Source of the DNA: Patescibacteria group bacterium
GTDB taxonomy: Bacteria > Patescibacteriota > JABMPQ01
DNA: 59,266 nt
Direction of reading: 5' to 3'
Assembly: GCA_018818965.1 (NCBI GenBank)
Contig: JAHJQX010000020.1
Coordinates: 1 to 59,266 of the forward strand
A program made the position numbers and the translations under genes. Positions 30,078-32,524 of this stretch are shown piece after piece. Position 1 is the first letter of the stretch; each line of letters begins with the position of its first letter. The notes under the pieces are model-generated. The model was not told the DNA's origin and searched no databases. It worked only from the letters and a program-made list of their open reading frames with translations.

Positions 30078-32069
30078 ATGGCAGTCGCCGAAGTAAAAAA
30101 AATAGGCATCGTTGCCCATAAGAAAGACAAAGAAAAAGTCGTCGACTTTTTGTATGGCACGGGTCTCTTAGAGGTGACTAATTGGCAGGGTAAGGCAGTT
30201 AAGGTAGAAGCAGCTGAGTCTGAAGAAGATGCCAGCCAACTGGAATATAAGTTATCAAAGTCTCAGTTCGCGATTGGCTTTCTAGAAGAATATAAAGATG
30301 AGGAGAAGGTAAAATTAGTTGATAAACTAATTAGTGCTAAGCTACCAATGTCAGCTAGTAAAGTAGAAAGAATCGCTAAAGAATTTCCGATTGATAAAGT
30401 AGTGGATCGTTGTAACGAGTTGGAAGAAGAGATCAACCAGAAGCAGTCGGGAATCGATAGCTCAACCGAAGAAAAGGAACTCCTAGAGAAGTGGGTGAGT
30501 TTGGATGTGAAAGTTGCTGAAGCTCGCGAGACCAAGACTACCAAGGCTATTTTTGGGATGGTAGATAGTGAGCAATATTTAGCTTTCATTCGTGAGCTGG
30601 AAAAGAAGGTAACCCAAGTTGATATCCGAAAAGTGACTAATGATGAACAGCAGAATTATGTTTTGGTGATTTTTAATAAGAATTTTGAGCGGGAAGTTAG
30701 CAAAATTTTGTTCAAATATGGGCTGGAGAAAGTGAGTTTACCTTCCGCCGATAAGACTCCCCGTGAACTGTTGGAAGATTTGTCAGAACGCAACCGAGCT
30801 CACCGCAAAGACATTAAGAAGCTAAAGTCTGAAGCGAAGAAACTGGCTAAAAAATACTTAGCGGAGCTCAAAGTATTATTCGATCATATCACTTGGCAGG
30901 TTGATAAGACCGCCGTTCAGAAAGATTTTAAAGAGACTAATAGCACATTCATAGTAACTGGTTGGATGAGGAAAGATGATATTAAGCGGGTGAAGATAGG
31001 ATTAGAGAAGATCACAACTAACTTTGTTATCGAAGAGATGGAGCTAGAAAAAGGCGAGGAGGCTCCCGTGATTATCCGGAATTCTTCCTTTATGCGACCG
31101 TTTGAAGCGGTGACTAGTATTTATGGCTTACCTAAGTCTTCAGAAGTGGATCCAACCCCTTTCTTATCAATATTTTTTATAATCTTTTTTGGTTTGTGCC
31201 TGACTGATGCTGGCTATGGTTTAGTTTTGATGGTTCTGACCTATTTAGCAATTAAAGTTCTCAAGATCCCCAAGGAAAATCAGCGACTACTGCGACTTTT
31301 GATGTATGGCGGGTTTGTTACTTTCATTATTGGTGCTTTGACTGGTGGCTGGTTTGGTCTAGTTTTAGATGAGCTGCCAGCCAGTTTGGGTTGGTTGAGT
31401 AAAGGTCTGATAGCGATTAGACTGATTAATCCGATCGAAAATCCAATCGTGATGCTGGGACTGTCGTTCGCCTTAGGTTATATCCACATTATCTATGGCA
31501 TTGCGATTGATATGTGGTGGAAGATCAAAAATGGCGATGTTAAGGATGGTATTTTAGATAGTGGCACCTGGATTTATTTTTTGTTGGCTATGGGTTTCTA
31601 TGGCGCAACGGCAGCTGGCGTCCTACCCGAGAGTCTGAAGTCGGTTTCATTGTATCTATTGTTAGCCGGTGTAGTGGTATTAATATTGACTCAAGGACGT
31701 AAGCAGAAGAATCCGATTATGAAGTTGCTGGCGGGTGTTGGTAGTTTGTATGGCTTAGTGGGATATATGAGTGATATTCTGTCCTACTCGCGCTTGCTGG
31801 CCTTGGGATTAGCAACGGGTGTAATCGCCATGGTGATAAACTTGATCGCCGTGATGTTCAAAGATATGGTGCCAGTATTTGGCTGGGTACTGATGGTGCT
31901 GATTATTATTGGTGGTCACATTTTCAATATTGTGATTAATGTGTTGGGTGCTTATATTCACTCCGGACGATTGCAGTTTGTGGAATTTTTCCCCAAGTTT
32001 TTCCAAGGGGGCGGTAAGATTTTCCGACCATTCAAGCGGGTGAGTAAGTATGTGGATTTGAAGTCATGA
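30078..32069 (+). CDS. ntpI: V/A-type ATPase subunit I (membrane a-subunit)
   Basis: 663 aa. The N-terminal half is a cytoplasmic coiled coil and the C-terminal half is multi-TM, with LSYSRLLALGLATGVIA (the essential Arg helix) and HIFNIVINVLGAYIHSGRLQFVEFF. Confidence 0.9.
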   Translation: MAVAEVKKIGIVAHKKDKEKVVDFLYGTGLLEVTNWQGKAVKVEAAESEEDASQLEYKLSKSQFAIGFLEEYKDEEKVKLVDKLISAKLPMSASKVERIAKEFPIDKVVDRCNELEEEINQKQSGIDSSTEEKELLEKWVSLDVKVAEARETKTTKAIFGMVDSEQYLAFIRELEKKVTQVDIRKVTNDEQQNYVLVIFNKNFEREVSKILFKYGLEKVSLPSADKTPRELLEDLSERNRAHRKDIKKLKSEAKKLAKKYLAELKVLFDHITWQVDKTAVQKDFKETNSTFIVTGWMRKDDIKRVKIGLEKITTNFVIEEMELEKGEEAPVIIRNSSFMRPFEAVTSIYGLPKSSEVDPTPFLSIFFIIFFGLCLTDAGYGLVLMVLTYLAIKVLKIPKENQRLLRLLMYGGFVTFIIGALTGGWFGLVLDELPASLGWLSKGLIAIRLINPIENPIVMLGLSFALGYIHIIYGIAIDMWWKIKNGDVKDGILDSGTWIYFLLAMGFYGATAAGVLPESLKSVSLYLLLAGVVVLILTQGRKQKNPIMKLLAGVGSLYGLVGYMSDILSYSRLLALGLATGVIAMVINLIAVMFKDMVPVFGWVLMVLIIIGGHIFNIVINVLGAYIHSGRLQFVEFFPKFFQGGGKIFRPFKRVSKYVDLKS

Positions 32070-32524
32070 GTGATTACACCGTCCCATCATATAACAGAAG
32101 ATTGTCAGCTTTTTTTCTTGATGGTGGCTTGTTGGTCTTGTTGTGCCATCCCGCTGTGGTTATTCTAGCTATTTTCGAAGTTATTGTGTCTAAACCTAGG
32201 ATCCTGGAAAATATTCCAACGCCGTTGTTGATCCTGAGTATATTAGTGGTTGCAACTGTAGCAAATGGTTACTTTCTTTTCCGTGATGGGATGAAGAAGG
32301 GGAGTTTCGGTAAAAGGAAGATGGGGTTAATGGTAATTGATGAGAAGACTAATCGGCCTTGTAGTTACGGGAAATCGTTTTTACGTAATCTGTTTTTACT
32401 GATGTTTCTCAGAGCTGATGGGATACTATTCCGCTGGACTAAGGATAGAAGGAGATTGTCGGATATGATTGCGGGGACAAGGGTGATCAATAGTGAAGAA
32501 TTTATTAATTTAAATAATAATTAA
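32066..32524 (+). CDS. RDD-family membrane protein embedded in the V-ATPase operon
   Basis: The RDD hallmarks are [24 protein letters not shown] and [14 protein letters not shown], with 3 TM segments. Its ATG overlaps the ntpI stop (ATGA at 32066-32069). Confidence 0.8.

Follow-up and report, generated by a model that had tools for sequence, protein, structure and literature searches.

In the operon coding for the V-type ATPase of a Patescibacteria group bacterium (GTDB lineage Bacteria; Patescibacteriota; JABMPQ01; assembly GCA_018818965.1), a gene for a membrane protein of the RDD family is located between ntpI and ntpK, i.e., exactly between the two genes of the membrane sector (Vo) of the pump. 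The operon lies on contig JAHJQX010000020.1, and this whole stretch of 59,266 nucleotides (nt) is referred to as the window. Such an organization raises the question of whether the RDD protein belongs to the pump, assists it, or simply happens to be encoded beside it. An earlier note, made from the sequence alone, had suggested a novel Vo-associated subunit, an assembly factor or a coupled ion-handling component. The data reported here make it likely that the protein is an accessory one, restricted to a lineage and dispensable, which is expressed in the membrane together with a Na+-type V-ATPase without being a core component of it.

The identity and the position of the gene turned out to be exactly those given in the earlier note. 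The open reading frame (ORF; Table 1) has the motifs quoted there for the RDD family and matches the Pfam profile of this family over positions 2-137 of 137, with 57.4 bits (cutoff 24.1; E 2.5e-15); no other Pfam family and no NCBIfam family was matched. Its ATG begins at position 32066 and overlaps the TGA stop codon of ntpI (32067-32069, preceded by AAG TCA), whereas its TAA stop codon ends at position 32524 and is separated from the ATG of ntpK, at 32536, by just 11 nt embedding an AAGGA ribosome-binding site. The two flanking genes code for subunits I and K according to both Pfam and NCBIfam, and neither promoter-like nor terminator-like sites were found between I, RDD and K. The sequence of the I-RDD-K junction of the window was retrieved in the Logan contigs of runs X1, X2, X3 and X6, belonging to four independent groundwater studies, with zero differences over the covered parts; this recurrence excludes an assembly artefact as the origin of the position of the RDD gene.

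The search for relatives of subunit I among about 5.8 billion protein clusters disclosed five close ones, the gene context of each of which was read. One of them, a metagenome-assembled genome from NCBI (L001), whose subunit I shares 89% amino acid (aa) identity with that of the window, harbors a 152-aa RDD gene at the same place, with the ATGA overlap kept. In the others, ntpI is followed by ntpK with no RDD gene, after 36 nt in L002-L004 (92% aa identity in subunit I) and in L006 (87%), after 112 nt in L007 (70%) and after 92 nt in L005 (64%). The gene is present at the I-K junction in two of the six genus-level species (the window and L001) and missing in the other four; since the four species sharing about 80% nt identity are roughly equidistant, its presence follows no simple split. 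Those relatives of the window subunit I that bear a name are Parcubacteria/Patescibacteria from groundwater. A wider survey, for which an alignment of 45 subunit I proteins was used as the query, yielded 80 GTDB species-representative loci and 80 metagenome loci. A hidden Markov model (HMM) built from 94 RDD homologues, which recovers the genes of the window, L001 and L008, matched no ORF within 4 kb of ntpI in the former and no ORF within 3 kb of ntpI in the latter. K comes immediately after I in 71 of the 80 GTDB loci, with gaps of up to 380 nt, and in 75 of the 80 metagenome loci, with a median gap of 32 nt. Moreover, a literature search retrieved no paper linking RDD with a V-type ATPase. 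The arrangement, rightly regarded as non-canonical in the earlier note, is unusual, previously unreported and narrowly distributed, and the protein itself belongs to a known family.

The pump flanking this gene is probably coupled to Na+. In a phmmer comparison with Enterococcus hirae NtpK (PDB 2BL2), the K protein of the window was matched at E 7e-36, and residues L61, T64, Q65, Q110 and E139 are all conserved; these residues are the five Na+ ligands of the E. hirae protein, and it is their conservation that argues for Na+ coupling. As to the need for RDD, the K protein of the window differs from that of L002, which has no RDD gene, in just 2 of its 157 residues. The residues common to only the two species harboring RDD are six in I and one in K, no more than those observed for arbitrary pairs of species, and a co-adaptation of I and K linked to RDD was looked for and none was found. 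Judging from the sequences, the pump works in the sister species without RDD and without any compensating change, and, since these species deleted the gene with I and K essentially unchanged, RDD appears to be dispensable.

These findings bear directly on the idea of a true Vo subunit or of an assembly factor, i.e., a protein bound in stoichiometric amounts to subunit I or to the K ring and required for assembly, stability or regulation, as AtpI/UncI in F-type ATPases or Vma21 in eukaryotic V-ATPases. The gene is indeed placed between the two Vo genes, its coupling to the single-copy subunit I would lead to a synthesis of roughly 1:1, and RDD proteins can partner membrane enzymes, as in the case of SppI and SppA (PMC7568657). 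However, a core subunit is expected to be conserved across V/A-ATPase lineages and to belong to a known subunit family, and RDD was found only in the window and in L001, being absent from four of the six close relatives and from the 160 other loci; I and K show no compensating changes; subfamily homologues of the protein occur outside ATPase operons; and neither Pfam and NCBIfam, nor a profile search of the PDB sequences, nor a Foldseek comparison of the predicted model with the PDB at E <= 0.001 related the protein to any known ATPase subunit or assembly factor. A Vo subunit or assembly factor is therefore improbable, and this part of the proposal made in the earlier note finds no support in the conservation of the gene.

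The comparison between the window and L001 revealed a marked difference in identity between the RDD gene and its neighbours. Identity at the nt level is 76.5% for RodA, 81.1% for ntpI and 79.1% for ntpK, and rises to 99.6% for RDD, in which just 2 of 459 nt differ, both differences being synonymous. At the 19% divergence of the flanks, the probability of observing two or fewer differences in 459 nt is 6e-39. The near-identical tract (Table 1) covers the RDD gene and extends beyond either end of it by about 20-35 nt. Since RDD is 99.6% identical while I and K are about 80% identical, these sequences indicate a recent exchange of the gene by homologous recombination between the window species and L001, one tract being trimmed to the RDD gene. 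Further exact tracts shared with L001 are present in the E, A and B genes (window 33372-38142), where many of them, 70-355 nt long, were observed and where identity per gene is 95-98%, against 76-81% for I, K and RodA; no exact-match run of 60 nt or more was detected between the window and L002 or L006. The operon as a whole thus has the appearance of a mosaic generated by recent recombination between species. The possibility that this mosaic is due to assembly chimerism is unlikely: an independent per-run Logan assembly (X5) reproduces it, with 91 substitutions and 4 gaps over positions 31921-32897, about as many as the 97 mismatch or gap positions of L001.

Traces of the gene are also recognizable in species that no longer harbor it. 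In the I-K spacer of L007, an ATG overlapping the stop codon of I opens a 24-codon ORF (MANYTKPSFD...), whose first ten residues score 32 (BLOSUM62) against the N-terminus of the window RDD protein; the same comparison gives 30 for the window and its closest homologue (P0122, see below), and a maximum of 26 for 1476 control ATG-started peptides from these loci. Since P0122 bears the same N-terminal motif outside an ATPase operon, this motif is part of the RDD gene rather than of the spacer. At the opposite end of the gene, the spacer of L002 and L006 contains a 3' remnant (TTTATTAGTTTAAATAATTAA against TTTATTAATTTAAATAATAATTAA), whose extent is reported in Table 1. The junction alignment also shows that the last codon (Ser) and the TGA stop codon of the window ntpI are created by the RDD junction, the relatives devoid of RDD stopping one codon sooner (AAG TAG). 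In L007 (positions 3435-3452), a short GC-rich palindrome (GTGGCCAATCGGCCGC) lies between the RDD remnant and the ribosome-binding site of ntpK and recalls the GC-rich palindromic insertions located at 33055-33102 of the window, in the same operon.

Given the 5' remnant in L007 and the 3' remnant in L002/L006, the simplest history suggested by these sequences is that the ancestor of a clade including L007 already had the RDD gene between ntpI and ntpK, and that the gene was deleted at least twice; according to this history, the gene would now be a presence/absence character, movable between species by recombination. An insertion unique to this genome with no conservation of synteny, which the earlier note had indicated as the outcome that would count against its proposal, is nearly what was found, except for the fact that L001 carries the gene and that L002, L006 and L007 keep remnants of it.

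Since several sister species are already without the gene, it might be asked whether the copies still present are a decaying or neutral remnant, i.e., recently transferred, functionless DNA heading for deletion. The state of the gene makes this very improbable. The ORF is full-length and retains the residues typical of the family, namely R12 at the beginning of the first helix, D19 inside this helix and D133 close to the C-terminus (in alignment A2, D133 is invariant, R12 nearly so, and D19 is shared by 16 of 19 sequences), together with all 12 invariant columns of the subfamily alignment. The protein is essentially a bare RDD domain (residues 7-137 of 152), for which AlphaFold2 (AF2) predicted a confident fold (predicted local distance difference test, pLDDT, 88; predicted template modelling score, pTM, 0.76). 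In this fold, residues 9-40 and 52-75 each make up a long hydrophobic helix, residues 101-113 and 115-124 are paired as a kinked helix, and residues 88-92 and 138-142 form a short beta hairpin. The model is that of a small polytopic membrane protein, with two to three helices, whose orientation in the membrane is deduced from the distribution of charges only. Because the subfamily-invariant residues are kept, the fold is confidently predicted, the differences with L001 are synonymous only and the sequence is constant across the samples of four studies, the RDD protein is probably functional.

None of the structural matches of the model is significant; the best ones were obtained with membrane domains in the peroxisomal Pex2/Pex10/Pex12 retro-translocon (7t92; E 0.03-0.18, probability 0.87-0.96, template modelling score about 0.5 on the query), a resemblance that may reflect a distant likeness of fold between the predicted model and these domains. 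Two possible origins of the gene were considered and discarded. A foreign origin is not suggested by composition, the GC content of the gene (39.0%, against 42.8% for the window) and that of its third codon positions (41.8%, against 43-46% for the neighbouring genes) being without a clear anomaly. A phage or defence origin was rejected as well, since only a 21-residue match at E 0.005 was obtained with PHROGs and a weak 19-bit match to the C-terminal part of PD-T4-6 with PADLOC; this part of PD-T4-6 is presumably an RDD-like membrane region too.

A word-indexed search with the RDD protein retrieved the protein itself only. In an exhaustive HMMER search of 1.84 billion representatives, one close relative was found (P0122, 42% identity, also 152 aa long, E 2e-33), followed by generic RDD proteins scoring up to 97 bits. 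P0122 is encoded on an 804-bp contig (L008), where the preceding gene is unidentified and codes for no subunit I, and where the gene that follows after 11 nt is, judged by eye, that of dihydroxy-acid dehydratase (ilvD). A second homologue (P0131) adjoins a Cytochrom_C_asm-family gene on L090 and is located near DUF4234 and unannotated genes on L091 and L092; a third one (P0124) is on a 641-bp contig without neighbours. Since P0122 and P0131 are embedded in unrelated neighbourhoods, the RDD subfamily is not tied to rotary ATPases.

This finding introduces the main alternative, according to which RDD is an unrelated passenger, whose function is independent of the ATPase and which exploits a junction that tolerates insertions and provides free expression. 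Other genes were found in the I-K gap in only two of the 160 surveyed loci. In a metagenome contig (Ga0315284_10000036, L166), the genes coding for ExbB (PF01618, 94 bits) and ExbD (PF02472, 72 bits), i.e., another membrane module of the ion-channel type, are located at 5008-6053, on the same strand, between ntpI (3001-4995) and ntpK. In the other case, a metagenome operon (L109), a transposase of the insertion sequence (IS) type (HTH_23 and rve_3) lies at 5098-6279 on the opposite strand between the two genes, and this case suggests that the junction tolerates inserted DNA. The presence of unrelated genes at the junction, the neighbourhoods of the closest homologues and the repeated loss of RDD with no change in I or K all agree with a passenger. 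On the other hand, both the ATGA coupling and the 11-nt spacing are kept in the two species, an overlapping start is recognizable even in the L007 remnant, and the exchanged tract is trimmed almost exactly to the gene, as expected if RDD itself was selected, even though none of this proves a link with the pump. A mere passenger is thus a less likely explanation than an accessory protein, but it remains a substantial one.

If the RDD protein is an accessory of the pump, the following scenario can be depicted. A small clade of groundwater Parcubacteria (candidate phyla radiation, CPR), of roughly genus level, would have acquired the gene at the I-K junction in its ancestor; several species of the clade would later have lost it by deletion, and the two remaining carriers recently exchanged it by homologous recombination. 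Co-transcribed with the operon and translationally coupled to ntpI, the gene would give rise to an inner-membrane protein which, because of the start/stop overlap, would be made together with the single-copy stator subunit I, roughly 1:1. Most likely, the protein would be an optional membrane partner of the pump; a physical or functional link with Vo is something that we can only infer from the above observations.

Two candidate roles can be proposed by analogy. The protein might be a small cation/proton-handling protein, similarly to the RDD protein of Halobacillus andaensis, which has been reported to be a Na+(Li+,K+)/H+ antiporter (the activity correctly mentioned in the earlier note), on the basis of assays in everted vesicles and with a dependence on R124, R129, D154 and D158 (PMC5996927). 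Alternatively, it might be a regulatory binding partner, similarly to SppI (YteJ) of Bacillus subtilis; this RDD protein associates in the membrane with the protease SppA, in a complex in which SppA is inhibited (PMC7568657). The RDD gene of H. andaensis, too, adjoins a putative sppA (PMC7568657), and a recent survey, while describing the role of the RDD domain as unknown, reports that a binding site within the membrane, open towards the cytoplasm, is conserved in it (PMC12419801). On sequence grounds, a facultative accessory or ion-handling role could still be played by the window protein. A more specific version of this idea, in which RDD would associate facultatively, but in stoichiometric amounts, with the Vo stator subunit I, tuning or coupling the ion flow of the Na+-V-ATPase (e.g., by local Na+/H+ exchange or gating), with a benefit driving the sweep of the gene alone across the species boundary, is quite unlikely; if true, no accessory membrane subunit of a prokaryotic V/A-ATPase would have been described before RDD, and RDD proteins might be general bolt-on modulators of membrane machines.

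Some points weigh against the scenario of an accessory protein gained once and then repeatedly lost. The near-identity of the window and L001 genes leaves two substitutions, too few to gauge purifying selection, and three groundwater metatranscriptomes, from the study holding the L001-type organism, gave zero coverage of any part of the operon and are hence uninformative. The assignment of RDD as an antiporter rests on one study of a distant homologue (PMC5996927), and the study on SppI reported no salt or pH phenotype (PMC7568657). As to the history of the gene, the polarity from ancestral presence to loss is deduced from short traces (10 codons for L007, some 30 nt for L002/L006), and for the 3' end an insertion into a pre-existing spacer retains some residual plausibility.

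The remaining features of the operon are reported in Table 1; its gene order is the same in L001, L005 and L007. The 104-aa gene that opens it (29706-30020, upstream of ntpI) has no match in Pfam or NCBIfam, and its position is kept in all six relatives, with 32-75% aa identity; it presumably codes for a divergent peripheral-stalk subunit of the G/H type.

Table 1. Position of the RDD gene and of the features surrounding it, numbered from the first letter of the window.
Feature	Position	Strand	Evidence or remarks
RDD-family membrane protein gene	32066..32524	+	152 aa; Pfam PF06271, subfamily alignment, AF2 model
ATGA overlap of RDD start and ntpI stop, translational coupling signal	32066..32069	+	sequence; kept in L001
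Recent exchange tract, near-identical to L001	32043..32560	+	3 mismatches in 518 nt; flanks ~80% identical
Last 7 RDD codons (FINLNNN*) and 11-nt spacer	32503..32535	+	colinear with the entire 36-nt I-K spacer of L002/L006 (FISLNN*); blastn end points, multiple alignment
ntpI, V/A-ATPase subunit I	30078..32069	+	663 aa; Pfam V_ATPase_I 100 bits; NCBIfam V-type subunit I 412 bits
ntpK, proteolipid	32536..33009	+	157 aa; Pfam ATP-synt_C; NCBIfam subunit K 191 bits (cutoff 127)
Whole operon (104-aa stalk-like gene, I, RDD, K, E, C, F, A, B, D)	29706..39170	+	ORFs, Pfam

Should the RDD protein prove to be an accessory one, its gene should not be annotated as that of an ATPase subunit in this operon, and the I-K junction would represent a spot at which additional membrane genes are now and then accommodated by CPR and other bacteria. 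The locus can be regarded as a natural experiment, in which sister species have nearly identical pumps with and without RDD, and it could help in testing the function of a family which counts thousands of proteins and for which hardly any biochemical work exists. The gene-sized tract shows, in addition, that ultra-small groundwater bacteria whose DNA is here about 20% apart (outside the shared tracts) still swap single genes by homologous recombination.

The position of RDD can be compared with that of accessory genes in other systems. AtpI/UncI and AtpZ, encoded in F-type atp operons, and AtpQ/AtpR, encoded in N-ATPase operons, are small, non-essential membrane proteins thought to aid ring assembly or ion supply. 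The window protein is likewise a small membrane protein encoded inside a rotary ATPase operon; these proteins have no sequence relation to RDD (no Pfam match to ATP-synt_I or a related family was obtained at E <= 0.01, so that the likeness is one of position and size only) and are conserved across many operons, against two species in this case. An accessory or regulatory function of an RDD protein finds its best precedent in SppI, an RDD membrane protein encoded beside a membrane enzyme, and the window protein plausibly acts on such a neighbour as well; the two differ in that SppI inhibits its target via a C-terminal domain, whereas the window protein is essentially a bare RDD domain whose putative partner is a rotary ATPase. 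The H. andaensis protein is only a distant relative, and the window gene, unlike that of H. andaensis, is located inside a V-ATPase operon; both are small polytopic membrane proteins having an R...D pair with the same 7-residue spacing in the first helix (R12/D19 in the window, R35/D42 in H. andaensis), and the window protein matches the family HMM over its full length and ends in a region with the GD...T.V motif (D133). Lastly, ntpJ, coding for a KtrB-type K+ transporter, is the last gene of the Na+-V-ATPase operon of E. hirae, ntpFIKECGABDJ (PMC9945522). It belongs to an unrelated family, is located at the tail of the operon rather than between I and K, and codes for a protein whose transport activity has been demonstrated; yet in both operons the genes of a Na+-type V-ATPase, with the same Na+ site in its K subunit, share a transcript with a non-ATPase membrane gene for ion handling (putatively so in the window).

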